Source: Candidatus Thorarchaeota archaeon
GTDB lineage: Archaea > Asgardarchaeota > Thorarchaeia > Thorarchaeales > Thorarchaeaceae
Direction of reading: 5' to 3'
Assembly: GCA_016839445.1 (NCBI GenBank)
Contig: JAEOUG010000023.1
Span: 1 to 17,301, forward strand
DNA length: 17,301 nucleotides
Every line of letters begins with the position of its first letter. Within the stretch, counting starts at the first letter, position 1. Below, one piece after another: positions 196 to 14,906 of the stretch. The translations under genes and the position numbers were made by a program. Under the pieces are notes generated by a model. That model saw only the letters and a program-made list of their open reading frames with translations. It was not told the DNA's origin and did no database searches.

Positions 196-816
196 TTAGC
201 GTTCAGATTCCTGCCTCGCCATGAACTCATCGCGCACAGTGTCTATCCAGAAGGGAGCTCCACGAAGCTTCGAGGCCTCCTCTGCATCAAGCTCCTCGTA
301 TTTCACTAGAGACATATCCTCGGGGAGGATGCCGCTTGTCCCGGCGGGGTCCTCCAGCACAAGAGTGAATGGATATTCTCCTCGAACTGCAAGCTCGATA
401 TTCTCGAGGATTGCGGCTGCATTGCTCCGCTCCTCCTCACTCTCAGCAAAGCTCTTCGCAGTCTCGACCACGCCTCTCACCCTGACGAGCAGCCCCTCCA
501 CGTTTGTGATGAAGGAGTCAGCAGCAGGTCCAGGTTCGACATCTATGCCGAAGTCTGGAAACCTGATTGTACCCGAGCTGGATCGGACAACTCTTACTCG
601 GAGAAGGGACTCATCAGAGACTCGTAGTGAGAATCGGCTTGGTTTCCGCTGCTCTGCCGAGAATACATCATTCTGAGAGAAGCCACAGTCGGGACACTTC
701 ATCGTGAATACGGCCAGCTCATTGAAGAAGGGAACACTGTAGAGCATGGATTCCACTTTCAGACTGCCACTGGAGCACATGGGGCACTGTAGAACAATGT
801 CTTCACTAGAATCCAT
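196..816 (-). CDS. zpr1: ZPR1-type zinc finger protein (archaeal single-module ZPR1)
   Basis: CPMC...VPFFNE...CPDCGF...D motif plus RVVRSSSGTI, PGPAADSFITNVEGLL and FTLVLEDPAGTS, all typical of ZPR1. ATG 816 is preferred over 861 because a CTTATA box lies about 30 nt upstream (847-852). Confidence 0.92.
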   Translation of the reverse strand: MDSSEDIVLQCPMCSSGSLKVESMLYSVPFFNELAVFTMKCPDCGFSQNDVFSAEQRKPSRFSLRVSDESLLRVRVVRSSSGTIRFPDFGIDVEPGPAADSFITNVEGLLVRVRGVVETAKSFAESEEERSNAAAILENIELAVRGEYPFTLVLEDPAGTSGILPEDMSLVKYEELDAEEASKLRGAPFWIDTVRDEFMARQESER

Positions 817-844
817 TCTGACCAATCCGCCTTTGAGAGGTCGT

Positions 845-853
845 CCTATAAGG
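845..853 (-). promoter_or_regulatory. Putative TATA box for zpr1
   Basis: Minus strand CCTTATAGG about 30 nt upstream of ATG 816, matching archaeal spacing. Confidence 0.4.
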
Positions 854-990
854 CTGACCATGTGGCAGCTCTGAATACATCCGTAGAAGGCTCAAAAGCA
901 CAAGCCGTCAATCTATTGTGACACACCTGACGCCAGCAGTCGTCAATAGGGATGCACGACTAATATCGGCCTAAGAGAGGAGTAGACTCG

Positions 991-3042: not shown

Positions 3043-5106
3043 CTAGGATTCCTCAGCGCCCCGCTTCTCCATCATTTCTCTGATCTTCTCGCGCACTTCT
3101 GGTGGGAGCCTCTCTGGATGCTCCATGAGCTCCTTCATCTTCTCAGGAGGGATTCTCATTCCGCCCGCCTCGGGAGGAGACATCCCCATGGCAAACATCA
3201 TTCCCGGAGCTCCCGATGCCATCTTCACCTGCTCTTCCACCTTCTCAACCTCAGTCTTGGCGACCTCGACGGTTTCCTCAGAAATTTCTTCAACTCCTTG
3301 GTGCGCATAGTATGTGTCGTAGAGCGCCTTGAAGACTCCTCCAAGAGCCAAGAGCTCCTCGTGAGTCCCCTGCTCCACTAGTTCACCATGGTCGAATACG
3401 AGTACTCGGGAAGCATGGGCAATCGTGGTGAGTCTGTGCGCGATGACGATAGTTGTCCTGTTCGAGAACAGCCGTTCCTGAGCATCCTGAACCAGTGATT
3501 CGCTGTAGGCATCCAGTCGACTTGTCGCTTCGTCAAGGATGAGTATTCTTGGGTCGGCCAACATCGTCCGGGCGATAGTGACCATCTGCCGCTGTCCTGC
3601 ACTCAGGTTCTTGCCGCTTTGGATGACCTTCGTCTGATATCCGTCTGCTAGCACTTCAATGAACTCGTTCGCACCAAGAATCTTGCAGAGCTCGATTATG
3701 TCCTCATCCGATGCCTCTAGGTTCCCATATCTGATGTTCTCCATTATGGTGTCATCGAACAGGTAGGGCTCCTGCGGTATTAGGGACATGGCTCCGTGAA
3801 GGGTGTGCAAGCCCACATCCTTGATGTTCTGATCTCCGATGCAGATATCACCCTCAGTGGGGTCATAAAACCGATTCACAAGTGCGGCTATTGTCGTCTT
3901 CCCAGCTCCTGTGTGCCCTACGATGGCCACAGTTTCAGTAGGATTAATGGAGAAGTCCACATGCTTCAGGACTGGAGTGTCCTTCACATACTCAAATGAA
4001 ACATCTTTGAAGTAGATACCATCGCTGTCTGGACGCAGAGGGACAGATGAGGGGGAGTCAGTGATTGCTGGCTGAGATTCTAGAACATCGGTGACCCTGT
4101 CCATGGCCGCGAGCGAGGTCTGGACTTGAGTGGCCATCATGCTGAGTCCAAGTACAGGGAACAGAATCCCTCGCACCAACGAGATGCCCAGGAAGATGTC
4201 GCCTAACGAGAGAATGGGTAGAGCACCCACTGCAAGTGACCCAGCTACAAACAGCATCGCAGCTATGGCAAACTGGCCAATAGCCATCATCAGAGGTTGC
4301 ATTGAGGACATCAGAATCATGAACCTGAAGCCGTACTTGTATGCCTTCTGATTCAGCTCCAGCAGTCTGTCCGCAATCTCGGTTTCGCGGTTGAAGGCCT
4401 TGGCAACGTGGATTCCGCTGAGGTTCTCTGCAATCTGCCCCGAAACCTCTCCAGATGCTCGCTGGGATGCAAGCATGATCCTCTGCCCGACTGTGCCGAA
4501 GAGCGCCGCAATGAACAGGATTCCGGGCACAACAACCAGAGAAGTCAATGCAAGGAACGGTGACATGAGCCATAGGAGGATGAAGGAGAAGACGAGGGTC
4601 AGAATCTGGCTGGCAAAGCCAATGAGAACATGAATTCCTGTGCTTAGGCTTGTGGCATCACTCGTGACTCTGGATGTGACGTTTCCAGCCTGCTCGGCCT
4701 TGTGATAGGACAGGTCAGCTCGTACCAAGTGCCTGTATACATCTTCCTGTACGTTCTGAACCAGCCCTGCTTGAGCAACTGACATGATCCACGTGTTTGC
4801 CCCACCCATTACCCAAGAGGCAACAGAAAGTAGTATGAACAGCCCTGTCAGAGTCAGAAGGACATCGAGAGAGCCCACTAGATACACAGAGTCGATTCCA
4901 TCCCTGAGAAGAAGAGGAGTGATTACGCTGAGCACTGTTGAGGCGAGAGAGAGGATTGCTCCAACAAGGACTATCCGCTTGAATTTTCCAAGATACTTCA
5001 CCATTTTGCCGAGAAGCACTCTGACCGGGCGGCTTCTCTCCTCCTTCTTGCCCATGAGCCTCCGAGGGCCTCTTGGTCCGGGCCCTCCGGGTCCGTGCAT
5101 GCCCAC
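3043..5106 (-). CDS. Heterodimeric ABC exporter subunit (TMD+NBD; TM288/EfrB-like, consensus Walker B and H-switch)
   Basis: N-terminal TM domain, Walker A GHTGAGKTT, Q-loop PQEP, signature LSAGQRQ, ILILDEATS, IAHRL. GTG start overlaps the TAG stop of the upstream subunit. Confidence 0.95.
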   Translation of the reverse strand: MGMHGPGGPGPRGPRRLMGKKEERSRPVRVLLGKMVKYLGKFKRIVLVGAILSLASTVLSVITPLLLRDGIDSVYLVGSLDVLLTLTGLFILLSVASWVMGGANTWIMSVAQAGLVQNVQEDVYRHLVRADLSYHKAEQAGNVTSRVTSDATSLSTGIHVLIGFASQILTLVFSFILLWLMSPFLALTSLVVVPGILFIAALFGTVGQRIMLASQRASGEVSGQIAENLSGIHVAKAFNRETEIADRLLELNQKAYKYGFRFMILMSSMQPLMMAIGQFAIAAMLFVAGSLAVGALPILSLGDIFLGISLVRGILFPVLGLSMMATQVQTSLAAMDRVTDVLESQPAITDSPSSVPLRPDSDGIYFKDVSFEYVKDTPVLKHVDFSINPTETVAIVGHTGAGKTTIAALVNRFYDPTEGDICIGDQNIKDVGLHTLHGAMSLIPQEPYLFDDTIMENIRYGNLEASDEDIIELCKILGANEFIEVLADGYQTKVIQSGKNLSAGQRQMVTIARTMLADPRILILDEATSRLDAYSESLVQDAQERLFSNRTTIVIAHRLTTIAHASRVLVFDHGELVEQGTHEELLALGGVFKALYDTYYAHQGVEEISEETVEVAKTEVEKVEEQVKMASGAPGMMFAMGMSPPEAGGMRIPPEKMKELMEHPERLPPEVREKIREMMEKRGAEES

Positions 5107-6992
5107 TACGGAGCACCCCCACGGGGAGATGATACAGCAAGAAGCGCTTGAGCTCCAGGAAGTCTCTCGAATACCCTCCGGTAGTGTTCAGAGTCTCTCA
5201 ATAGCTCTTCGTGAGTTCCACTCGCAACAAGGCGACCCTTATCGAGAATAATGACCATGTCTGACTCTATGAGAGTTCGAAGGCGCTGTGTAACAGTGAT
5301 GCTGGTCCGTCCTCGCATTACTTCATCCAGCGCCTTTCTCATGAGATACTCTGTCTGGGCATCAACAGCGCTCACCGAGTCATCCAGGAGTAGAATCTTG
5401 GGATCCTGGACAATTGCGCGAGCTATGGCCAGCCTCTGCCGTTGACCTCCGCTCAAGGTCATACCGCGTTCTCCAATCATCGTGTCGTATCCTTCAGGTA
5501 GCCGAACAATGAATTCATCCGCCTGGGCGCGCTTCGCCGCTTCAACAATCTCCTCATCTGTCGCATCCGACCGACCAAAGGCGATATTCTCGCGTACAGT
5601 CATCCTGAACAGGAAGATGTCTTGTTCTACAAGACCGACGACGTCTCTGACACCCTTTGTACACACGTTCCGAATGTTCACGTCCCCCACTCGAATCTCG
5701 CCTTCTGTAGGGTCGTACAGCCGGAGGAGGAGTTTCAGGAGCGTGCTCTTCCCCGCACCAGGGCCGCCGATCAGGGCGACTCGAGACCCTCCGGGGATAG
5801 TAATGGAGAGGTCTCTTATTGCATAGTGTGGTCTGCTATTCTCCACTCGACCATATCTGAAGCTCACGTTGTCAAACACAATGTCACCTGTCCATTCAAC
5901 ATCGGTGACCTCTTCCTCGGGCTCTGACATCGGATCTTGCCAGTTCAGGAGATCCACTATCCTACGAGCATTCACATAACCACCGCGAAGCATGAGAAGC
6001 ATAGCGGGAAACTGGAAGTTGAGACCCTGAAGGGAGGTCAGCAGCCCGAGGATCGTGACCATCTGCCCCACATCCAGCACACCAGCAATCACGGCGTATC
6101 CAGCATATGCGAAGGCAACGGTGGTCATACCAGCAAGTATGAGAGCAGGTAGGTAGAAGGCGGAGAGTTTGCCCTCCTTTGCATTGAGCTCCTCCTGCAT
6201 CTTGCTGACATCGTGGAACTTCTTAACCTCGATATCTTCTGCATCGAATGCTCGCACGACCTCAATACCCTGGAAGACGCCCGTCGTGACTGATGTCAAT
6301 TCCTCGAGATTCTCCGAGCGTCGACGTCGCACCGGTTCTATCGCATTGGCGTAGCGATACGAGAAGGCCAGGTAGATTGGTGCACCAATCAGCATAATGA
6401 GTGTGAACCCATATACGGGCAGTGTGTAGCCACCCAGCGTGATAGTAAACATCGTACTCACACCCGGGAGGAAATCTACTTGGATGAGAAGGAACGCGGT
6501 GAGGAAGAATGAACCAAGTCCTGTAGCGATGTTCCGAATTGCAGGATTGAGTGAAAAGCGGACGAAGAAGATGTCCTGCATCGCAACAGAGAGCAGACGT
6601 TTGCTGTCGAACTCATCATGGAAGGTCATGCTATTGACTTGAAGAGCTTCGAAGAAGTCCTGACGAGCATCTCGTTCCCATCGAAGAGTCAGAGTGGCCC
6701 AGACATAGCCTCCAACGAAGTAGAGACCCATATAGATCAGGGCGAAGACTACAATGAGCCATACATATGACATGAATAGTGCTGTAAGTGCTCCAGTCTG
6801 CAGGATTTCAGTCACTGCCCTGCCGATGAAGACTGACGGGAACACTGTAAGTAGAGTAGACGTCATCACAAGCAAGAGACCAATGCTTGCCAGAACCTTG
6901 TTACGTGTCATGCCGCTCAGCATGTATCTCCAGGGAGTCTTGCGGATTGTTTCGCCGCCGTTGCTTCTAGACATTCTATGTGGCTCCATCAT
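5106..6992 (-). CDS. Heterodimeric ABC exporter subunit (TMD+NBD; TM287/EfrA-like, degenerate catalytic residues)
   Basis: Walker A GGPGAGKST, signature LSGGQRQR, Walker B LLLDDSVSAVD (E to D), switch TQRL (H to Q). Confidence 0.95.
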   Translation of the reverse strand: MMEPHRMSRSNGGETIRKTPWRYMLSGMTRNKVLASIGLLLVMTSTLLTVFPSVFIGRAVTEILQTGALTALFMSYVWLIVVFALIYMGLYFVGGYVWATLTLRWERDARQDFFEALQVNSMTFHDEFDSKRLLSVAMQDIFFVRFSLNPAIRNIATGLGSFFLTAFLLIQVDFLPGVSTMFTITLGGYTLPVYGFTLIMLIGAPIYLAFSYRYANAIEPVRRRRSENLEELTSVTTGVFQGIEVVRAFDAEDIEVKKFHDVSKMQEELNAKEGKLSAFYLPALILAGMTTVAFAYAGYAVIAGVLDVGQMVTILGLLTSLQGLNFQFPAMLLMLRGGYVNARRIVDLLNWQDPMSEPEEEVTDVEWTGDIVFDNVSFRYGRVENSRPHYAIRDLSITIPGGSRVALIGGPGAGKSTLLKLLLRLYDPTEGEIRVGDVNIRNVCTKGVRDVVGLVEQDIFLFRMTVRENIAFGRSDATDEEIVEAAKRAQADEFIVRLPEGYDTMIGERGMTLSGGQRQRLAIARAIVQDPKILLLDDSVSAVDAQTEYLMRKALDEVMRGRTSITVTQRLRTLIESDMVIILDKGRLVASGTHEELLRDSEHYRRVFERLPGAQALLAVSSPRGGAP

Positions 6993-7518
6993 TTAGTCGA
7001 TCAACAAGTGACGCTATCTTTGCAGACATCTCTTTCAGATGTTGGAGCAAATTCTGTCGCTGTCGTTTGGTCAAGGAATCTGCTAGTGTGTTGAAGGACT
7101 CTACTGAGTGAATCATCCCAATGGTGTGGAAGTTGAGGCGCTCCTCGGGTTCGAGAAGTTTCTCCCAGAGCCGGGGGCCAAGACGAGTCTTTTCTCCCAC
7201 AGCCCCACGCCGATGTTTGATAGCAAGATCAATGCGCCTTCTCCCTTCATCAGTAAGACGATAGGTCTTGCTTCTTCCCTCAGTTGAGGCAGCCTCAATA
7301 ATGCCGTCTTCCTCGAGGGATGACAACAGAGGGTAGATCGTGCCAGGTCCAGGATTCCACTCCCCGTCGGTGAGTTCGTTGAGGCGTTGCATGATATCAG
7401 CCCCAGTCATCTCGTCGGACCGCAGGAGTCGGGGAATGACATGCCTAAGAAGCCCCCTAGGTACTGATTGTGGCATCTCCAGATGGTCACATTCGTGTTG
7501 GGGATCTTCCTTACTCAT
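6976..7518 (-). CDS. PadR-family transcriptional regulator
   Basis: RGLLRHVI..LL...MTGADIMQRL......W.PGPGTIYPLLSSLEEDG.I.......K.YRLTDEGR matches the PadR wHTH. ATG 7518 is preceded by the GGTGGTGA RBS; the ORF overlaps the downstream ABC gene start. Confidence 0.93.
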   Translation of the reverse strand: MSKEDPQHECDHLEMPQSVPRGLLRHVIPRLLRSDEMTGADIMQRLNELTDGEWNPGPGTIYPLLSSLEEDGIIEAASTEGRSKTYRLTDEGRRRIDLAIKHRRGAVGEKTRLGPRLWEKLLEPEERLNFHTIGMIHSVESFNTLADSLTKRQRQNLLQHLKEMSAKIASLVDRLNDGAT

Positions 7519-7530
7519 GCTCACCACCAG

Positions 7531-7577
7531 TTCCAATATCGGATGCGATTATCGGATGCGATATAAAAGTATTGGAA
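7531..7577 (-). promoter_or_regulatory. padR-ABC promoter with TATA box and tandem palindromic operator
   Basis: Minus-strand TTTTATAT at 7568-7561. Exact 13-bp direct repeat TATCGGATGCGAT at 7537-7549 and 7550-7562, each containing ATCG-N4-CGAT. Flanking 8-bp inverted repeat TTCCAATA (7531-7538) / TATTGGAA (7570-7577). Confidence 0.75.
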
Positions 7578-7657: not shown

Positions 7658-9502
7658 GTGGGTGAGAAGGCGAAGGTAAAGGAAACGGTACGCCTCTACA
7701 CGAAGGTGTGGCAGCTCCCTTCCTTTCGACAGATAATCCTGAGACTGGCACTTCTAGTCCTGGCGACATCTGTGGTATCTACCGTCCTAAAAGGAATCTC
7801 GCCTGGCCCCTCGAATCTTCTCGTGACATTCGCGTTCTACATGTTTCTGAGCGGCATCCCAACCTTTCTTGGGACTGGATTGCTCTATCTCATTGCCGCT
7901 GAGAAGAACTCACCACTCGATGCAAGGAGGACAGCCGGCTCTGTGCTCTTTGGACTGCTCTTCTGGTTCTCCATGGGAATCATCGGAGGACTTGCCGATT
8001 CGTTGCTGTCAACACAGACCTTCGAACCCCGATTCTGGATTCTGGGGGCAAGTATGGGATACCTCGCGTTCGCCTTCTTGATTAATGGTCTCAGTGACCA
8101 TTCAGAGCCTCGCAACTTTGCAGGTGCCACAATGCCCTACCTTCTCTGGTTGGTGACTGCCATGTTCGTGTCCCCCTTGGATCCACTGCTTCCAGCGCTC
8201 CCAACACTCTGGCCAGTGATAGTGGTAGGCTCTGTTCTTGTCATGTCTCTGGCAGTGCACTACATCTATCGAGCAGTGAGCGTTCCATTTGAGCGCGACC
8301 TTGGGATAAACGGGCCTGACCTCCTGCGTGCTTTCGGTCACGACTACCTCGCTGACAATCCAGAACCCATTGAAGCCATTCTCACAGGAATCGCAACGCT
8401 CCAGGACATCCCTCTGGAAATCATACTCTTCTCAGATGGTCAGAAGCCTGTGGCCTGTGGTGTTGTTTCATATGTTCACCCCGGGCCATTTCGGGACATC
8501 GGAAGCAGCGATATTCCGTCTGCACTCATCGCACACATCCGAAACAAGTATGACATACCATCCTTCGTCTTGCATGGCAGCTGCACCCACCAGCAGAATC
8601 TGACCACGAAGGAGGACTACTCAAAGGTCTTTGATGAGGTTGATCGCCTCATCGAGAACACGAAGACATACTCCGAGGTGTCTGGACCACACTGGACTGA
8701 CGGAGGCAAGTTCAAAGTCTGGACTCTATTTGCCGGGCCAGATGTCCTAGCAATCACAACAAGCTCTCCAGACTTCACCGACGATATCGCCCTTGAAGTA
8801 GGAGTCGATACTGCAGACATGGTGAGAAAGAGGTCACCTCATCTCGATTCAGTGACCATAGTTGATGCTCACAACTGCATCAATGATCACGCGGTCTCTG
8901 TGACAAAAGGAGACCCTGAGGCCACGGAATACGTGGGCACGGTTTCCGGAGCTGTATTCTCAACTGACGGACGTGCTAAGACAGGAATCGAGGCAGGTGT
9001 CCATCAACTGATTCCTGATGGCTTCCCTCAGAAAGAGGGTATTGGGCCAGGGGGTATCACTTCGCTTGTGTTCAGAACAGGCGAGGGAGATACTGCGCTC
9101 ATCGTAGTGGACGGAAACAATGTTGTACCGGGCTTCAGGGAGGAAGTGATTGGGATTCTAAGGGCCCAAGGATTCGACCATGTGGAATTGGCGACAACAG
9201 ACACACACGTTGTCAATGCGATTTCACTCTCCAGCAGAGGATATCCACCGGTGGGCAGATATCGACCTGAGGAAACCATTGAGTACATGATTGTAGCATC
9301 AGAGAGAGCCCGAGAGAAGTTGCGTAAGGTGGAGATAGGGCTAGGTTCCGGCATGGCGAAGGGGCTTCGGACTTTCGGAGAGAGAGGGTTTGATATCCTG
9401 ACACAGAACGTTGCAGAGGCTGCGGACATTGCCAAACGGAAAGGTCTGGGAGCTGCCGCTTCAGCGTTTCTCCTTTCAGTTCTACTCGCGTTCTTCATCT
9501 GA
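7658..9502 (+). CDS. DUF2070-family membrane protein (predicted neutral ceramidase-superfamily lipid hydrolase)
   Basis: About six N-terminal TMs, then HPGPF, HGSCTH..N, DAHN, DGNN and TTDTH motifs, and a C-terminal TM. Confidence 0.88.
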   Translation: MGEKAKVKETVRLYTKVWQLPSFRQIILRLALLVLATSVVSTVLKGISPGPSNLLVTFAFYMFLSGIPTFLGTGLLYLIAAEKNSPLDARRTAGSVLFGLLFWFSMGIIGGLADSLLSTQTFEPRFWILGASMGYLAFAFLINGLSDHSEPRNFAGATMPYLLWLVTAMFVSPLDPLLPALPTLWPVIVVGSVLVMSLAVHYIYRAVSVPFERDLGINGPDLLRAFGHDYLADNPEPIEAILTGIATLQDIPLEIILFSDGQKPVACGVVSYVHPGPFRDIGSSDIPSALIAHIRNKYDIPSFVLHGSCTHQQNLTTKEDYSKVFDEVDRLIENTKTYSEVSGPHWTDGGKFKVWTLFAGPDVLAITTSSPDFTDDIALEVGVDTADMVRKRSPHLDSVTIVDAHNCINDHAVSVTKGDPEATEYVGTVSGAVFSTDGRAKTGIEAGVHQLIPDGFPQKEGIGPGGITSLVFRTGEGDTALIVVDGNNVVPGFREEVIGILRAQGFDHVELATTDTHVVNAISLSSRGYPPVGRYRPEETIEYMIVASERAREKLRKVEIGLGSGMAKGLRTFGERGFDILTQNVAEAADIAKRKGLGAAASAFLLSVLLAFFI

Positions 9503-9562
9503 GAGGGCATTTCGATAGAGGTATATGCGGCATCTGGGAACTGATACAGAAGAGGACTAGAC

Positions 9563-10132
9563 ATGGGTGCGAAGCGGGTTCTCGTTGCGATGACTGGTGC
9601 AAGCGGGTCGATTTACGGTTTACGACTTATCAGGGCACTGAAGGCCGCTGGGAATGAAGTGCAAGTCATCATAAGCAGGTGGGGCGAAGAGACCCTGAAG
9701 TATGAGACTGGAATCGATAGAGAGACTCTAGTTGCAGAGGTCGATAGGGGTTACGACGAGAACGATCTCTCAGCGCCTCCTGCTAGTGGCAGCTACCACC
9801 TTGACGCAATGGTGGTCATACCCTGTTCAATGAAGACACTTGCCGGCATCGCACACGGTTACGCAGACAATCTTGTGGGAAGAGCGGCAGACTGCAGTCT
9901 CAAAGAGCGCAGGAAGCTGATTCTCGTCCCCCGAGAGAGCCCGTTGAACCTGATTCACATTCGGAACATGGCGACAGTAACCGAGGCGGGAGCGATTGTG
10001 ATTCCAGCATCGCCAGCGTTCTGGCACAGACCCAAGACAATTGAGGACCTCGTGGACTCTGTAGTTGAACGTGTTCTATCGCACCTCAGCTCAGCTGGCG
10101 AGAAGGCCGCTGAGTGGACTGGTCTTGACTAA
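9563..10132 (+). CDS. ubiX: UbiX-family flavin prenyltransferase
   Basis: AMTGASGSIYG, APPASGS, PCSMKTLAGIAHG.ADNL..RAADCSLKERRKLILVPRESPL, PASPAFW.RPKTIEDLVD. Confidence 0.96.
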   Translation: MGAKRVLVAMTGASGSIYGLRLIRALKAAGNEVQVIISRWGEETLKYETGIDRETLVAEVDRGYDENDLSAPPASGSYHLDAMVVIPCSMKTLAGIAHGYADNLVGRAADCSLKERRKLILVPRESPLNLIHIRNMATVTEAGAIVIPASPAFWHRPKTIEDLVDSVVERVLSHLSSAGEKAAEWTGLD

Positions 10133-11976
10133 CTCCAGTGCAGTGGCGTGTCGCAGTTCGGGCAGATTATGGTTTCTCCGGGCAGAGCACGTCTTGGCAA
10201 CGCGGCTCCACAGTGAGCACAAGGTATCTTTCGGGGAGCTGTGTCCTCGGACTTGGCTTGGATTCTCAACAGGACCTCACGTAGTTCATCACGCATGTCC
10301 GAAAGAAGCAGATCCAGCTTCTCCTCGTCAGAGCTTGCCACAGATATCCTCACTGTGAGATTCTCCTTCGAGACAGAGCCCACAACAACAAACTCGTCGC
10401 CTGCTAGCGCCTTTCCGTAGTACCAAGCCTCAATCCCGGTCTTAGGGTCTGAGTTCTCATCAACGTAGGTGACACTGTGTTGCTCGATGATGCTCCTGAC
10501 TGTGTCAAGCATATCAGCTGCGTCTGTTTCGGGGTCTATCTGATACTCGCACGCTCTCTGAGTCTGTAAACTCGTTTCAAGAAGCCTCTGCAGGTTGCTC
10601 AAGTTCTTGAGCGAAATGAATGCGTCTCTAACACTCCCCTCATGTCCCTGAGGGATGGCAATCTCTTCTTCGCCGTGACCTTCACAGTTGACGACGGCAA
10701 TAGACTTGTCCTCCAATTCGTCTATGCGGACAAGTTCCCTTGGGTTGTGACAACGATGGCATTCGTATAGCTGCCGATAGGCCTGAGACAGCAGTTTCGG
10801 ACCAGCCTCGTTAGAGAAGAAACGCTCCTGTCCATGTCCGTTGCGACATTCCACCTTGAATTCCACATAGGCGTCCTTTAGTTTCGTGTCCTTGATAGTG
10901 ACCGGTGACGAGCACTTCTCACATTTCGATGCGGCTTCAACAGAAGGCCCACGGTCTATGAGAGGGTCGCGTTCCTCCAGATGCTTGAAGACACCGACTG
11001 GCATGCTCTTGCGCATAGCGCCATGAATAGGACAGACAAGCTCGAGATCCACGTCCTTTCCACGCACTCTTGTCTCCACAATCTGTGTGAGCAGATCGCA
11101 CTGGTTGCATTTGAGGAGACCACCCACGATTGCGTCGATTGCTTCTTCGTCAAGTCCTGTCTGCTGCATCAACTCGGAGGAATGTCCGTCAGGACACGAG
11201 CACTTGATCTTGTAGCGGTCCTTGTCCAGTTCGATACTGCGAATCGAGAGCGACTTGCTGCAATTAGTGCAGCTCAGCATGGACCGCACGATTGTGCCTT
11301 CAGAGAGTGCTTCTGTTATCTTCTCAAGTAGCCATGCATGCTCGGCCGGGAGTTCCTTCTTCTGCTTTCCATGCGCAGGGCATAGAACCTCAACACGGGC
11401 TCTGTCCCCCTTTGTGGTCGTCTCGAGGACCTTGCACGGAAGGCCACACACATCACAGTGAACCAGCCGCTTGACCACCGTCTTCATGACCGCATCCATT
11501 GCATCCCGAGGAATCAATCTGATCTCCTTGTGCCCATTAGGACATCGGAATCTGACCTCGAGGAACCTCTTCCTATCAATAATGTCACTTGCTGAGAATG
11601 TCTGGGCACACTTCGGGCAGGTGAGAGAATCAAGAATGGACTTGGAGCTGTTCACCATCTGCTGCAAATCGGTCACTGCAGTGTGATAGTGGGCAGGAAT
11701 CCGCTTCTTCTGCTCACCATCGATTGGACACAGGAAGGTATACTCAACTTCGTTTCTCCCGAGATCAGTGTTGATGAGAGACATTGAGGAGCCGCAGATG
11801 ACGCACACAAACAGACCCTTGAACAGATCATGAGCCATGCTATCAGCCTGATATCTTGAGACCTCTCGCTTCCCCTTGTGGCCGTTTACGCACTGGCAAT
11901 AGACACGTAACGTCTGACCGCGGATCTCCGCCCCCAGCGCGTGAAACGGCTCTTTGCATTTCTTGCAGGTGAACAA
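10129..11976 (-). CDS. Cys/His metal-binding repeat protein A: 8 CxxC-x21-C(xxGH/xxHG) modules, adaptin/COP platform-like domain, C-terminal Cys4 zinc ribbon
   Basis: CxxC at aa 4, 58, 120, 174, 236, 290, 352, 406. AWYYGKALAGDEFVVVGSV..NLTVRISVASSDEEKLDLLLSDM platform-like segment. CAHC...CPNC at the end. TTG start with GGAGGAG RBS; stop overlaps the ubiX stop. Confidence 0.85.
   Translation of the reverse strand: MFTCKKCKEPFHALGAEIRGQTLRVYCQCVNGHKGKREVSRYQADSMAHDLFKGLFVCVICGSSMSLINTDLGRNEVEYTFLCPIDGEQKKRIPAHYHTAVTDLQQMVNSSKSILDSLTCPKCAQTFSASDIIDRKRFLEVRFRCPNGHKEIRLIPRDAMDAVMKTVVKRLVHCDVCGLPCKVLETTTKGDRARVEVLCPAHGKQKKELPAEHAWLLEKITEALSEGTIVRSMLSCTNCSKSLSIRSIELDKDRYKIKCSCPDGHSSELMQQTGLDEEAIDAIVGGLLKCNQCDLLTQIVETRVRGKDVDLELVCPIHGAMRKSMPVGVFKHLEERDPLIDRGPSVEAASKCEKCSSPVTIKDTKLKDAYVEFKVECRNGHGQERFFSNEAGPKLLSQAYRQLYECHRCHNPRELVRIDELEDKSIAVVNCEGHGEEEIAIPQGHEGSVRDAFISLKNLSNLQRLLETSLQTQRACEYQIDPETDAADMLDTVRSIIEQHSVTYVDENSDPKTGIEAWYYGKALAGDEFVVVGSVSKENLTVRISVASSDEEKLDLLLSDMRDELREVLLRIQAKSEDTAPRKIPCAHCGAALPRRALPGETIICPNCDTPLHWS
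10672..11967 (-). repeat. Protein-level tandem repeat: 4 x 116-aa double module in paralog A
   Basis: Counted spacing: the CxxC to C linker is 21 aa in all eight modules; inter-module linkers alternate 24 and 32 aa. Not evident as a DNA-level repeat. Confidence 0.9.
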
Positions 11977-12030
11977 TCCTTCTCCTCCAAAGGATGGTAG
12001 CGCTCGCAGTGCATAGTGCAGTAGATGACC

Positions 12031-12040
12031 TTGTTAAAAG
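12031..12040 (-). promoter_or_regulatory. Putative TATA box for paralog A
   Basis: Minus strand CTTTTAACAA in the 74-nt gap between the paralogs, about 55-60 nt upstream of TTG 11976. Confidence 0.4.
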
Positions 12041-12050
12041 ATGTTCCGCG

Positions 12051-14330
12051 TCACTGCAAGTACAGAGCAATCGTGAGGGTATGAGTGCAGTACTTGCATC
12101 GGATCGGTGCTCGAGTTCCAAGCTCCTGCACTTGATCAGGGTCTAGAGGCGCGCCGCATCGAAGACAGACCCAGGAGTCCATGGTATCGGCCAGTTCATC
12201 GATGGTGGTAGGGAGCATGGCCACATCCTCGCCGAGTGCTTGAACCTTCACAACTGAATGACGTCCGTGCTCGGGTCCACAGATCAGAACAATCACTGCG
12301 ACCTTCCGCTTGGTGTACTTGCCCTCAGCGAAGCCTCGGATGGTGCCAATGAACTCCCCTCCAACCACATGTTCCTCACTGTCCACGATGTGGAAGTTCT
12401 TCGCGGGAAGTATCTTCTCAGCCTTGGTGAAAAGGACCTTAGCGTTCCAGTCAAGCTCCTGCTCTTGCTGAGTACTCTCCAAGGCGGAGAGCACAAGGTC
12501 GAACTGCTTCGAAGTCTGTTTTGAGGGCTTCAGCAAGTCACAGACAGAGCGAATCAGGTACGGCTCTACGCTCATTGTGTGTAGCTGATCAAGGAAGTCT
12601 ATGAAGGAAACAGTGGCGACGACCTTGCCTTGGACACAATCCTTCGTAGGGTAGAACGTGAACTGAGGACTGCGGAAGCCGCCGACCTCTATCCTAGATA
12701 TGGTCTTGACAGACTCTCCTGCAAGTTCCATGCAGTCCTGTGGATACGCGACGATGCTTACTGTGACATTGGTGATCACGAAGCCTGTGTTGTTGCGAAT
12801 CTTCACCTTGTAGTCGAACTTACCTCCGATGATCTCACATCCGCGTGCGACTTCAACCACGGACTCACGCGATTCTGTGGTCTCAGCCTCCCCTTCCAAT
12901 GATAGGGGTTCATCTTCAGGTGCTGTCGCCTCAACTGGGGGACGGGCCTTGTCAGCTTCAATCTCGTCATATGCCCTCTGCATGGCCTCCGCATGGTCTG
13001 GTGGAATGTCAAGTACATACTTGCCGTGGAGAGAACATAGAAGCACAACCCGCTCTTCTCTCCCTCTTGGTTCTATGTATACAAGGCTGAGCTGCTCATA
13101 GCACTCAGGACACTGATACAGCTGCTTGTAGAGATCGACAAGCGTTTCTTGAGGTAAGCCTGGCACGAAGAGCCGCTTGCTCCTATGCCCATTCCTACAC
13201 TCTACATCGAACTCTATCAACCCACGTCGCTCTTCGACATCCCTCACGGTCAATGGCATCATGCATTTCTCACAGCTTAGACTACGAATCATCGAAGTCC
13301 TTCTGTCCATGGTCTCTTGCCGACTGCTGAGAATATCAAAGACCTCAGAAGAGCACTCACGAGTCATGACTCCGTGAATGGGGCATACAATCCGGAACTT
13401 TGTGCTCTTCTTGCTTCTTCTTCTATCCAGAATGTGTGTTAGATGTCCGCACTCATCGCATGACAGAATCGCTGTAGCCAGACGTTCGGCTACACTCTCG
13501 CTCCAAGTGATGGGCAATGTACGCTCGGTTGTGTATCCTGAACCAGGGCATGCGCACTTGATTCGGAATCCAGATTTGGATTCGTGAATCGATCGAATTG
13601 TAAGCGGCTTCTTGCATCCGCCGCTAGTAAGCATTGACCTGACCACTGCATCGTCAGGGACTTCAGCAACGGCATCCTCGAAGAGGGCCATTGTTGATGT
13701 TGGCAGGTCCTTACGAGAAGAACCGTGCACGGGACAGGAGGTTGTCACCCGAGTCACGTCCTTTCTCGGTTCTCGTTCAACGACGCTTCCGGGAAGACCA
13801 CACCTGTCGCAGTGGACGACCCGTTGGAGAATCTTCTTCAGAAGGTCGCTGTCGACCGAGGCCGGCAGGAAACGATCCTGTCTATGACCATTTGCGCAAC
13901 GTACTGCCAGTTCTAACATGCCGTTTCTCTCTTCAATGCCGCTCACGGCAAAGACCAGACCACACTGCTCGCAGCGAAAAGAGTCAGTTATGGATCTGGC
14001 CGTATCTACACTAGATGCGGCGAACTCGACTGCAGCAAGATAGGTCCGAGGGAACTCCCGCTTCTCAGTTCCGTGGATAGGACAGAGGAACACCCCCTCA
14101 ATCTTGGACTCCTGCTCGTACTGCTCAAGGAGGGTCATATAGGAGCCGCACTCGAGACAGGTGAATATCCTCTCGAAGATGTCCTGCGCTATCTCGAGCG
14201 CCTGATGTTCGGCGATACGTCTCGCGCCCTTGTGACCGTTGAGGCATTGTACATCAAGGGTCAGAATTCGGTCTCTTACCTCAGCACTTCGGATGTAGAG
14301 GGGTTCACCACACTTCTTGCATGAGAACAA
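12051..14330 (-). CDS. Cys/His metal-binding repeat protein B: 8 modules (5th degenerate), acidic hinge, Ig-like (GAE-like) plus platform appendage-like domain, C-terminal Cys4 ribbon
   Basis: CxxC at aa 4, 58, 120, 174, (236 SGGC), 291, 353, 407. Pro/Glu hinge at aa ~463-490. YKVKIRNNTGFVITNVTVSI...VVATVSFID beta-sandwich, CDLLKPSKQTSKQF junction, CLRC...CKYC end. TTG start with GAGGT RBS. Confidence 0.87.
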   Translation of the reverse strand: MFSCKKCGEPLYIRSAEVRDRILTLDVQCLNGHKGARRIAEHQALEIAQDIFERIFTCLECGSYMTLLEQYEQESKIEGVFLCPIHGTEKREFPRTYLAAVEFAASSVDTARSITDSFRCEQCGLVFAVSGIEERNGMLELAVRCANGHRQDRFLPASVDSDLLKKILQRVVHCDRCGLPGSVVEREPRKDVTRVTTSCPVHGSSRKDLPTSTMALFEDAVAEVPDDAVVRSMLTSGGCKKPLTIRSIHESKSGFRIKCACPGSGYTTERTLPITWSESVAERLATAILSCDECGHLTHILDRRRSKKSTKFRIVCPIHGVMTRECSSEVFDILSSRQETMDRRTSMIRSLSCEKCMMPLTVRDVEERRGLIEFDVECRNGHRSKRLFVPGLPQETLVDLYKQLYQCPECYEQLSLVYIEPRGREERVVLLCSLHGKYVLDIPPDHAEAMQRAYDEIEADKARPPVEATAPEDEPLSLEGEAETTESRESVVEVARGCEIIGGKFDYKVKIRNNTGFVITNVTVSIVAYPQDCMELAGESVKTISRIEVGGFRSPQFTFYPTKDCVQGKVVATVSFIDFLDQLHTMSVEPYLIRSVCDLLKPSKQTSKQFDLVLSALESTQQEQELDWNAKVLFTKAEKILPAKNFHIVDSEEHVVGGEFIGTIRGFAEGKYTKRKVAVIVLICGPEHGRHSVVKVQALGEDVAMLPTTIDELADTMDSWVCLRCGAPLDPDQVQELGTRAPIRCKYCTHTLTIALYLQ
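13023..14321 (-). repeat. Protein-level tandem repeat: 4 x 116-aa double module in paralog B (one extra residue in module 5)
   Basis: Same 21-aa internal spacing and 24/32-aa alternating linkers as paralog A, collinear module by module. Confidence 0.9.
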
Positions 14331-14417
14331 TAGGCCTACCTCAGGGTTCGCTGTCTCGCGACCTCTGATTCGGCCTCAGCACTCTTAAGGGAATTCCCGA
14401 CAGGTTCCTGAAAGCAT

Positions 14418-14906
14418 CTACTGGTCGTTGTCAGAACTCGGTTGCTCTGGCTTCGATGTGTCTTCCTTCTCCTCAGCCGGCTTGGTCTTCTTCTCCTTTG
14501 CCTTCGGTTTCTTCTTTCCCTCAGACTGCTTCTCAATGAACTTCTGAAGCTCAGTAAGCACTGGGAGTTCTCCGCGCTGGAGAGCCAAGGGAAGTGCGAA
14601 GAAGATGACCATGACGGCCCCAGCGATATACATTATCGGGCCAACAATGAAAACCCAAGAGAGATAGTCACCTATCACCATCACAAGCCCTCCAAGTAGC
14701 ATTCCTGGCCAAGCTGTTGCGACTGGCCGCTTCAGTGCAGTTGTAGCGCATGAGAAGCAGACCAGAGCGAAACCGGTCACTCTGAAGAGTGGTCCGATGA
14801 ACCAGATGTACACTCCGATGAACCAGATGGCGGCTCCGGCCAACATCATGAGGAAGCTCGGGTCTGAAAGAAGCTGATCTACGGCGTTCTTTGGTTCGTC
14901 AATCAT
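14418..14906 (-). CDS. Small membrane protein (about 4 TM) with a Lys/Glu-rich soluble C-terminal tail
   Basis: Four hydrophobic segments in aa ~18-108, then KQSEGKKKPKAKEKKTKPAEEKED. Sits co-oriented between the HD-like gene and paralog B. Confidence 0.75.
   Translation of the reverse strand: MIDEPKNAVDQLLSDPSFLMMLAGAAIWFIGVYIWFIGPLFRVTGFALVCFSCATTALKRPVATAWPGMLLGGLVMVIGDYLSWVFIVGPIMYIAGAVMVIFFALPLALQRGELPVLTELQKFIEKQSEGKKKPKAKEKKTKPAEEKEDTSKPEQPSSDNDQ

Follow-up and report, generated by a model that had tools for sequence, protein, structure and literature searches.

Positions 10129–14330 of contig JAEOUG010000023.1 from Candidatus Thorarchaeota archaeon (assembly GCA_016839445.1) contain two co-directional, minus-strand open reading frames (ORFs) that encode a pair of paralogous proteins, here called the short paralog (10129–11976, 615 aa) and the long paralog (12051–14330, 759 aa). 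The stretch analysed, referred to throughout as the window, is the entire contig (17,301 nt), and its source genome measures 2.9 Mb and is 89.8% complete. Each protein begins with a periodic array of Cys-rich, zinc-ribbon-like modules and ends in a large non-repeat domain, absent from an earlier note on this DNA. It is these adaptin-ear-like C-terminal domains that provide the main functional clue, and the reading we favour, to which we give an even chance, is that both genes encode cytoplasmic trunk-plus-ear scaffold or adaptor proteins of an Asgard-specific family. The array is undescribed; archaeal ear-like domains are already in print.

In the long protein the array leads into an acidic hinge (net charge −8 over residues 462–495), an ear-like domain and a terminal zinc ribbon. 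AlphaFold2 modelled residues 481–759 with a predicted local distance difference test score (pLDDT) of 86.5 and a predicted template modelling score (pTM) of 0.69, as a beta-sandwich followed by an alpha/beta domain and then the ribbon; residues 481–489 of the protein (residues 1–9 of the model) scored below 50. Compared with the PDB by Foldseek, the model found adaptin or COPI appendages in all of its top 14 matches, with both subdomains covered over 238–251 columns. The best match was 9qpq_H, from the COPI leaf (E-value 2.5e-11, TMq 0.66, TMt 0.75, 241 columns), followed by the ears of AP2 alpha, AP2 beta2 and gamma-COP (E 3e-9 to 1.3e-7 for alpha, beta2 and gamma-COP), with a BBSome subunit next (E 1.9e-5); 29 matches in all reached E ≤0.001. 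VIA, a second and independent aligner, likewise placed adaptin/COPI appendages in its top rows, again across both subdomains and over 207–215 aligned residues. The subdomain order of the ears, N-terminal beta-sandwich and then C-terminal alpha/beta platform, is the order met in the long model, and the comparisons agree on a predicted two-part domain with the adaptin/COPI appendage fold. Conservation of this tail is far above that of the array, at 69–95% identity among long orthologues.

The tail of the short protein is simpler, comprising a platform-like domain and a ribbon only, with no beta-sandwich and no hinge between trunk and domain. The ribbon of the long protein was matched by the Pfam model Zn_ribbon_SprT (PF17283) over residues 720–754, a borderline match (28.3 bits, with the cut-off at 28.1; E 1.8e-6) that fell to 18.4 bits when the 279-aa tail was scanned alone. 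Structure rows from the ESM Atlas also led to adaptins and COPs, with TM-scores of 0.26–0.33 that make them leads only.

Several results weigh against this interpretation of the tails and of the pair. None of the Pfam ear models was reported by hmmscan on the pair. Alpha_adaptinC2 (PF02883) had no match there in a whole-genome search either, Alpha_adaptin_C (PF02296) had none anywhere in the genome, and the sole match of B2-adapt-app_C (PF09066) was to the short tail at 10.5 bits (E 1.09), against a cut-off of 22.6. When profiles of the short and long tails were compared with one another, the ribbon alone aligned, at 23% probability. A Pfam scan of the window's proteins found no ESCRT, GTPase or coat gene, and the order of genes in which the pair is embedded, described below, may be family-wide synteny that by itself says little about function. 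The fold of the array was compared only as part of the whole short model, and no claim of a new fold is made. Identity between the long tail and adaptin or COPI ears is moreover just 7–14%, which together with the missing Pfam ear match confines the likeness to fold and domain order and does not extend it to membership of the family.

Within these limits the parallel with the large subunits of adaptor protein (AP) and COPI complexes (alpha, beta2 and gamma adaptin; beta and gamma COP) is one of overall architecture. Like the long protein, they run from a repeat trunk through a short, flexible acidic hinge to a two-part appendage, and their appendage is the best structural match to the long tail by both aligners. 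Adaptor complexes, furthermore, have two paralogous large subunits, and the window holds two paralogous large proteins side by side. By analogy with the trunk, hinge and ear order of the adaptins and COPs, an adaptor or scaffold role is the one favoured for the long protein. The differences are nonetheless substantial. The AP/COPI trunk, to which the appendage is joined by the hinge, is an alpha-solenoid of HEAT type, whereas here the hinge is present and the trunk is an array of zinc-ribbon-plus-helix modules; the ear is followed by an additional four-Cys (C4) zinc ribbon; the beta-sandwich is missing from the short paralog; the ears share little sequence and no Pfam ear model comes near its cut-off; and no medium or small subunit gene lies nearby, no mu- or sigma-type gene being found among 13 scanned window genes. 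Eukaryotic ears recognise short linear motifs in accessory proteins, as parts of heterotetramers that also contain medium and small subunits.

Proteins with an adaptin appendage region, composed of an immunoglobulin-like (Ig-like) domain and a TBP fold, have been described from archaea, including Asgard archaea, in the available part of a preprint that views them as interaction hubs in ESCRT loci (bioRxiv 10.1101/2024.02.06.579148). One example of Methanobacteriales type carries a Zn ribbon and an uncharacterised N-terminal domain, and Asgard archaea have the region in a variety of multidomain proteins (same source and part). The long paralog shares with these proteins the Ig-like plus TBP-fold (platform) region and the optional Zn ribbon. 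It differs in that they are defined, in that part of the preprint, by proximity to Vps4 and ESCRT-III or by fusion to Vps28-C or a steadiness box, neither of which applies here: Pfam domains for Vps28-C, steadiness box, Vps4 and ESCRT-III were absent from the pair and from 10 scanned neighbour proteins. Nor do the proteins named there include a tandem zinc-ribbon array, and literature searches aimed at such an array found none; the supplements of the preprint and of PMC10307638 may list the family. The available part of the latter states that adaptor domains in Asgard archaea are unfused to each other.

The tail module is mobile. In the window's own genome the ear-plus-ribbon module is also found on a 505-aa protein with multiple predicted transmembrane (TM) segments and on a 333-aa protein with a single one, at 37–38% identity to the long paralog. 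The former (L015:1492–3009, minus strand, contig C114) has several hydrophobic segments and the latter (L016:1297–2298, plus strand, contig C155) has one, and in both the module makes up the C-terminal 270 residues. Genes for membrane-anchored ears form tandem rows in relatives, for example four in G003:C156 at 60121–65284. Other trunks are also seen. A 457-aa protein (L017:808–2181, plus strand, the same as G000:C168) consists of a HEAT_2 region (E 3.3e-9) and then an ear-like domain, with no ribbon, the ear being 22% identical to that of the long paralog (E 2.8e-14); an ESM Atlas cluster of 50 Thorarchaeota members, 407 aa in length and with HEAT_2 in 80%, aligns to the ear of a long-type homologue. 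Proteins of 675–805 aa from other Thorarchaeota (P0123, P0126, P0127 and P0140) combine a helical N-terminus with two tandem ear-plus-ribbon modules and have no array; their ears are 44–59% identical to that of the long paralog, and the class was not found in the window's genome. A distant relative, P0246, has two zinc modules followed by ear and ribbon. Proteins that share the short tail have N-termini formed by TPR, an NHL or SBBP propeller, a beta-helix or CBM, and a simple hydropathy scan placed hydrophobic segments (predicted TM) upstream of the module in 15/23 of them.

A profile of the ear-plus-ribbon module (A5) matched in 234/400 Asgard genomes at E ≤1e-5, distributed by family as 80/85 (f1), 122/135 (f9), 12/14 (f26), 4/4 (f27), 5/5 (f32), 0/31 (f5) and 0/19 (f12). 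Thorarchaeota genomes carry several copies each, some of them in tandem rows, and these copy numbers are minima, only six candidates per genome having been scored. By these profile matches, the family of ear-plus-ribbon proteins is large and mostly unannotated. The comparative pattern that emerges is one of a repeat scaffold or membrane anchor, then an ear or platform, then a ribbon, with the array occupying the scaffold slot; since the same tail module is attached to TPR, HEAT, propeller and membrane-anchored proteins, the array is read as the trunk of a trunk-hinge-ear protein. In one genome, G049, the short gene lies directly downstream of a gene for a 291-aa SPFH/Band-7 plus Zn-ribbon protein and beside a gene for a 314-aa ear-plus-ribbon protein (L021:5883–9944), a trio that recalls the Methanobacteriales loci of the available part of the ESCRT preprint and is so far a single-genome case. 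The SPFH-plus-ribbon protein of that locus, used as a query, was not found in the window's genome, which is incomplete as stated above.

The trunk is strikingly regular. The CxxC motifs of the short protein begin at residues 4, 58, 120, 174, 236, 290, 352 and 406, giving periods of exactly 54/62/54/62/54/62/54, and every CxxC is followed after 21 residues by a further Cys. Odd-numbered modules end in C-x-[ND]-G-H and even-numbered modules in C-x-x-H-G. The long protein keeps the same register but is displaced by +1 residue from module 6 onwards (291, 353, 407), owing to a one-residue insertion in module 5. These values, along with the TTG start codon and (M)F[T/S]CKKC N-terminus of both ORFs, bear out what the earlier note had reported: alternating periods amounting to 4 × 116 aa, exact in one paralog and one residue out in the other. 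Its description of eight alternating Cys3His modules in both proteins holds for the short one, where module 2 of the window's copy ends CPIDG, with Asp in place of the His carried by 41/44 short homologues (a C3D site), and not for the long one, which has seven intact modules and a degenerate module 5. In that module the first Cys is replaced by Ser or Ala in 16/16 long homologues and His is kept in 7/16. Elsewhere in an alignment of 60 homologues (A1: 44 short and 16 long) the ligand columns are invariant or nearly so, which places the array beyond chance, and up to nine metal sites are predicted per chain; the same figure had been proposed previously and implies counting the terminal ribbon, which is present in both proteins. 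The periodic array is real, and far beyond chance.

Profile-profile comparison of the modules gave probabilities of 98.1–99.1% for odd-odd pairs, 94.6–98.9% for even-even pairs and 39–96% for odd-even pairs, from which it follows that the true unit is the 116-aa di-module, present four times. The two paralogs are colinear, with 37% identity across 455 residues. The suggestion that each module matches its counterpart in the other paralog stood in part: by ungapped identity over 50 positions, a crude measure, the positional counterpart was the best match for 5/8 short modules, was tied for module 5, and was beaten for modules 3 (S1 34% vs L3 32%) and 8 (L2 30% vs L8 26%). Colinearity thus appears better grounded in the full-length alignment and the tree than in module identities. 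A quick IQ-TREE analysis of the array (20 rows), rooted on the single gene of sister family f2, which sits on a long branch, resolved the short type (SH-aLRT 99) and the long type (88) as separate clades. The four-unit array is therefore older than the duplication, as had been argued from the letters.

That the array belongs to no described family, another point of the earlier note, agrees with the searches made. Nothing in Pfam scored above cut-off on the array of either protein, and nothing in NCBIfam on either protein; the Pfam copy scanned lacked PF26040, so that the Pfam negative applies to models other than that one, whose precomputed tag (PF26040.1) is carried by homologues P0016, P0028, P0035, P0037, P0038, P0078, P0105 and P0227. 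Profiles of PDB sequences gave no matches with A1 and, with alignment A3, a best E-value of 0.25 (ribosomal protein bL33). Among 1.84 billion cluster representatives, phmmer found 41 proteins at E ≤0.001, about 15 of which match the array and most of the others only the last 155 residues of the short protein. A weak match to the NCBIfam model Sel_Asgard (E 0.0071; 16.3 bits, where the cut-off is 132) was taken to be noise. Published work on Asgard zinc fingers and solenoids, including the available part of PMC10927574, was judged unrelated to the array.

AlphaFold2 modelled the short protein from the 60-row alignment with a mean pLDDT of 88.9 and a pTM of 0.71, and every 10-residue block in residues 1–570 scored at least 82. 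Each modelled module consists of a three-stranded sheet with one helix (odd) or two helices (even). The lack of any low-confidence linker between modules speaks for a single packed body and against a beads-on-a-string arrangement; the metal-stabilised continuous body proposed earlier is to that extent upheld, and its shape may be that of a rod or of a curved solenoid. Against the PDB, the whole short model returned only propeller and repeat noise by Foldseek (TMq 0.07–0.14, root mean square deviation 18–32 Å), and a beta-propeller identity was rejected, there being no meaningful global superposition; by VIA-align the C-terminal domain took all 50 rows. A possible zinc-ribbon fold of the modules is suggested by the conserved CxxC...Cx2–3H ligands and the three modelled strands, with no Pfam ribbon model above cut-off on the array. 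Classical zinc ribbons (TFIIB, TFS, Rpb9, Elf1 and RpoP) share the CxxC knuckle, beta-hairpin and second knuckle on a three-stranded sheet, as well as a weak Pfam similarity, and array homologues carry automatic names of ribbon type; they differ in that their second knuckle is CxxC, where here it is Cx2–3H, with packing helices after each and eight modules in strict alternation.

This resemblance leads to the main rival explanation, that the array is a set of nucleic-acid-binding modules which read or coat DNA or RNA, with the ear recruiting other factors. Many zinc ribbons, those of TFIIB, TFS, Rpb9, Elf1 and RpoP among them, bind DNA, RNA or polymerase, and homologues are annotated as ‘transcription elongation factor Elf1’ and ‘RNA polymerase subunit RPC12/RpoP’. 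The proteins have weak, sub-threshold Pfam matches to the Zn_ribbon_recom, Zn_ribbon_RPAB4 and Elf1-type ribbons, and three modules of the short protein (1, 3 and 7) have a basic character (isoelectric point, pI, 8.9–9.9). However, all of these matches are below cut-off, and the names in the source records apparently derive from similarly weak similarity. Taken whole, each array is close to neutral (net +2, pI 7.7, in the short protein; net −3, pI 6.5, in the long), and the full proteins are acidic (pI 6.2 and 5.9). The tail is fused elsewhere to TPR, HEAT, propeller and membrane-anchor regions, which are not nucleic-acid contexts, and no gene of nucleic-acid metabolism is conserved beside the pair, save that for an HD_assoc_2-domain protein of unknown role. 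The near-neutral charge and the domain contexts therefore make a nucleic-acid-binding role less likely, and we regard it as improbable.

The 116-aa unit extends beyond the pair. Named homologues are all from Asgard archaea, labelled Thorarchaeota, Sifarchaeia, Promethearchaeota or Odinarchaeota. A search of Asgard genomes with a profile of the unit (A4), as the earlier note had recommended, gave matches in 134/400. Genomes of the window's family have eight matches where both paralogs occur and four where there is one, and the four-unit array was found only in that family (f1), its sister family f2 having one gene that is more divergent. Single units were detected in 19/19 genomes of f12, 6/6 of f21, 3/3 of f22, 2/2 of f23, 2/2 of f24 and 32/135 of f9, at E 1e-9 to 4e-23, in proteins of 113–324 aa. 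Loci L034–L044, from f9, f12, f21, f22 and f24, encode small single-unit proteins of this kind, with no Pfam model over the unit. A protein-homologue search with A4 at near lengths returned two fragments only. Single-unit proteins have the same 116-aa layout (CxxC...C-x(2–3)-H, helix, CxxC...CPxHG, helix) and differ in having one unit, not four; among ten of them, several have a Pro-rich linker and a terminal Zn_Ribbon_1/DZR, two an N-terminal TM region and none an ear domain. On homology searches of this kind, the di-module is an unnamed domain widespread in Asgard archaea.

The distribution of the two types bears directly on how they might work together. A class-wide search with A1, covering 87 genomes of 17 genera and the window's own genome, found the long type in 14 genera and the short type in four (g1, g25, g29 and g19); two genera had neither (0/3 each, in genomes 87–99% complete). 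In 23/28 genomes of the window's genus the two genes share a contig, the long one immediately upstream of the short one; four of the other five are broken by contig ends and one has no match. Three genomes of g29 and one of g25 show the same adjacency. Conserved adjacency, which the earlier note had made a test of its proposal of an A/B heterodimer or co-polymer scaffold, is therefore upheld in these lineages and fails in others. Ten genera have the long type only; 12/13 matching g25 genomes have the short type only; in G073 the place that the long gene has by synteny is taken by the short one; and in G049, a single contig, the two genes are 1.7 Mb apart, the short one at 0.73 Mb and the long one at 2.44 Mb. 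In a further genome the short-type orthologue (G086:C218:9111–10949, minus strand) is full-length (E 1.6e-274) apart from one in-frame TAG, for which sequencing error, a pseudogene or recoding might account.

That the paralogs form an obligate heterodimer or alternating co-polymer would fit the co-directional genes with the long one upstream, the age of both clades and their joint retention in the lineages that have the pair, and eukaryotic adaptor complexes do use two paralogous large subunits. The genomes with a single type, in many lineages, show that there each paralog functions without the other, and this, with the relocated gene of G049, speaks against an obligate partnership, which we consider unlikely. 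Complex prediction between residues 1–460 of the short protein and 1–461 of the long gave scores of 0.27 and 0.00 (with A1 and A3) against a mark of 0.32, and counts neither way. Where both occur, the paralogs may cooperate, but neither depends on the other.

Finally, up to nine predicted metal sites per chain, and the fact that Cys3His sites can be redox-labile, might suggest that the Cys-rich array is a zinc store, metal buffer or redox sensor whose occupancy or thiol oxidation switches its state, but strict spacing, inter-site helices and the conservation of many non-ligand residues point to a structural role, the packed AlphaFold2 model is confident, fusion to an interaction-hub fold suits a scaffold better and no metal-homeostasis gene is conserved in the neighbourhood, making this the least credible of the alternatives and one that we very much doubt.

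The coordinates of the pair and of its parts are listed in the following table.

Features of the paralogous pair and its immediate surroundings in the 17,301-nt window; residue numbers refer to the protein named
Feature	Coordinates	Strand	Remarks
Long paralog	12051..14330	−	759 aa, TTG start; array, hinge, ear-like domain, C4 ribbon; orthologues found
Long paralog array, residues 1–461	12948..14330	−	seven intact C3H modules plus degenerate module 5
Long paralog degenerate module 5	13470–13634	−	reads SGGC...CPGSG
Long paralog hinge, residues 462–491	12858..12947	−	acidic, Pro-containing; P464, P465 and E467 nearly invariant
Long ear-like domain, beta-sandwich subdomain, residues 492–593	12552..12857	−	predicted; AlphaFold2, Foldseek, VIA
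Long ear-like domain, platform (alpha/beta) subdomain, residues 600–717	12180..12533	−	
Long C-terminal zinc ribbon, residues 720–759	12054..12173	−	CxxC-x19-CxxC
Short paralog	10129..11976	−	615 aa, TTG start; array, platform-like domain, C4 ribbon; orthologues 40–77% identity
Short paralog array, residues 1–460	10597..11976	−	eight C3H-type sites; CxxC positions, ligand conservation, module profiles
Short paralog, four 116-aa di-module units	11629–11976, 11281–11628, 10933–11280, 10585–10932	−	
Short platform-like domain, residues ~457–575	10252..10608	−	alpha/beta, beta-alpha-beta4-alpha; resembles platform of adaptin ears
Short C-terminal zinc ribbon, residues 586–615	10132..10221	−	CxxC-x15-CxxC; four Cys conserved in 43/44 short rows
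GGAGG	11984..11988	−	7 nt 5′ of short paralog TTG
GAGGT	14338..14342	−	7 nt 5′ of long paralog TTG
Gene for 162-aa hydrophobic protein	14418..14906	−	Lys/Glu-rich tail; upstream of pair, co-directional

One gene order was kept in 13/14 loci sampled from 11 genera of the window's family: a gene for an HD_assoc_2 protein, one for the 162-aa membrane protein, the long gene, the short gene, UbiX (convergent), DUF2070, PadR, two ABC exporters and a gene of unknown type. Only the G049 locus that holds the relocated short gene departs from it, and at the single locus of sister family f2 only UbiX and the array gene are in common with this order. The neighbours of the pair in the window are accordingly the HD_assoc_2-domain protein, UbiX, DUF2070, PadR and the ABC exporters. 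The 162-aa protein has several hydrophobic segments and no family match, and in 8/13 related loci of the family that have the syntenic block a homologue is flanked by the HD_assoc_2 gene on one side and by the long or the short gene on the other; its gene may be co-transcribed with the pair and possibly belongs to the same system. On the other side of the pair, the PadR regulator and two ABC exporter genes, each with a membrane and an ATPase domain, occupy 3043–7536 (minus strand), and facing them at 7658–10132 (plus strand) are the DUF2070 membrane protein and the UbiX flavin prenyltransferase; both groups are syntenic across the 11 genera. A further zinc-ribbon protein of the window, encoded at 196–861 (minus strand), is of ZPR1 type and has a jelly-roll as well (Pfam E 2.3e-17 and 4.3e-8); it bears no relation to the array. 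An artefact or non-coding locus is ruled out by the intact frames and by some 127 conserved homologues, and no sign of a mobile element or of phage origin was noticed. Sequencing runs that match the locus are DNA metagenomes (marine sediment, estuary, mangrove and similar), with no RNA runs listed among them.

Under the favoured trunk-plus-ear reading, the trunk would be made of four tandem 116-aa units of two zinc-ribbon-like modules each, in which one Cys3His site per module would clamp the three-stranded sheet, presumably by binding zinc, ahead of one or two helices. Successive helices and sheets, as the model has them, would pack into one continuous body. In the long protein this body would be joined by the acidic hinge of about 30 residues to a domain of predicted adaptin/COPI-appendage fold and then to the C4 ribbon; in the short protein it would run directly into the platform-like domain and ribbon. 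The trunk may then be a rigid protein-binding surface, standing in the slot that TPR, HEAT or propeller repeats take in sister proteins, and the ear or platform domain a hub at which partner proteins dock, possibly including the membrane-anchored proteins that bear the same tail module. Proteins so built would have an adaptor or scaffold role on the cytoplasmic side of the membrane.

A bolder version, which we rate as a slim chance, is that the pair forms the core of an Asgard adaptor-like complex of two paralogous large subunits, whose trunk-hinge-ear layout would parallel that of the alpha/beta adaptins and beta/gamma COPs, with a zinc-ribbon solenoid trunk in place of HEAT repeats, ears that recruit partners, and the ear-plus-ribbon membrane proteins as cargo or receptors. 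If real, such a complex would amount to a sorting system specific to this lineage that shares its architectural logic with eukaryotic coats, and the ear module would be a docking device in wide use in Asgard archaea before, or independently of, adaptins. Asgard archaea have been searched for forerunners of the eukaryotic membrane-trafficking machinery, and this locus encodes a conserved protein with the full order of trunk, hinge and ear, the trunk being an undescribed repeat of eight predicted zinc sites. The array, as a compact and highly regular repeat that is probably metal-stabilised, is also of possible interest for protein design. Should the ears indeed dock partners, the pair and its relatives would offer a concrete, clonable set of proteins with which adaptor-like sorting could be tested in Asgard cells.

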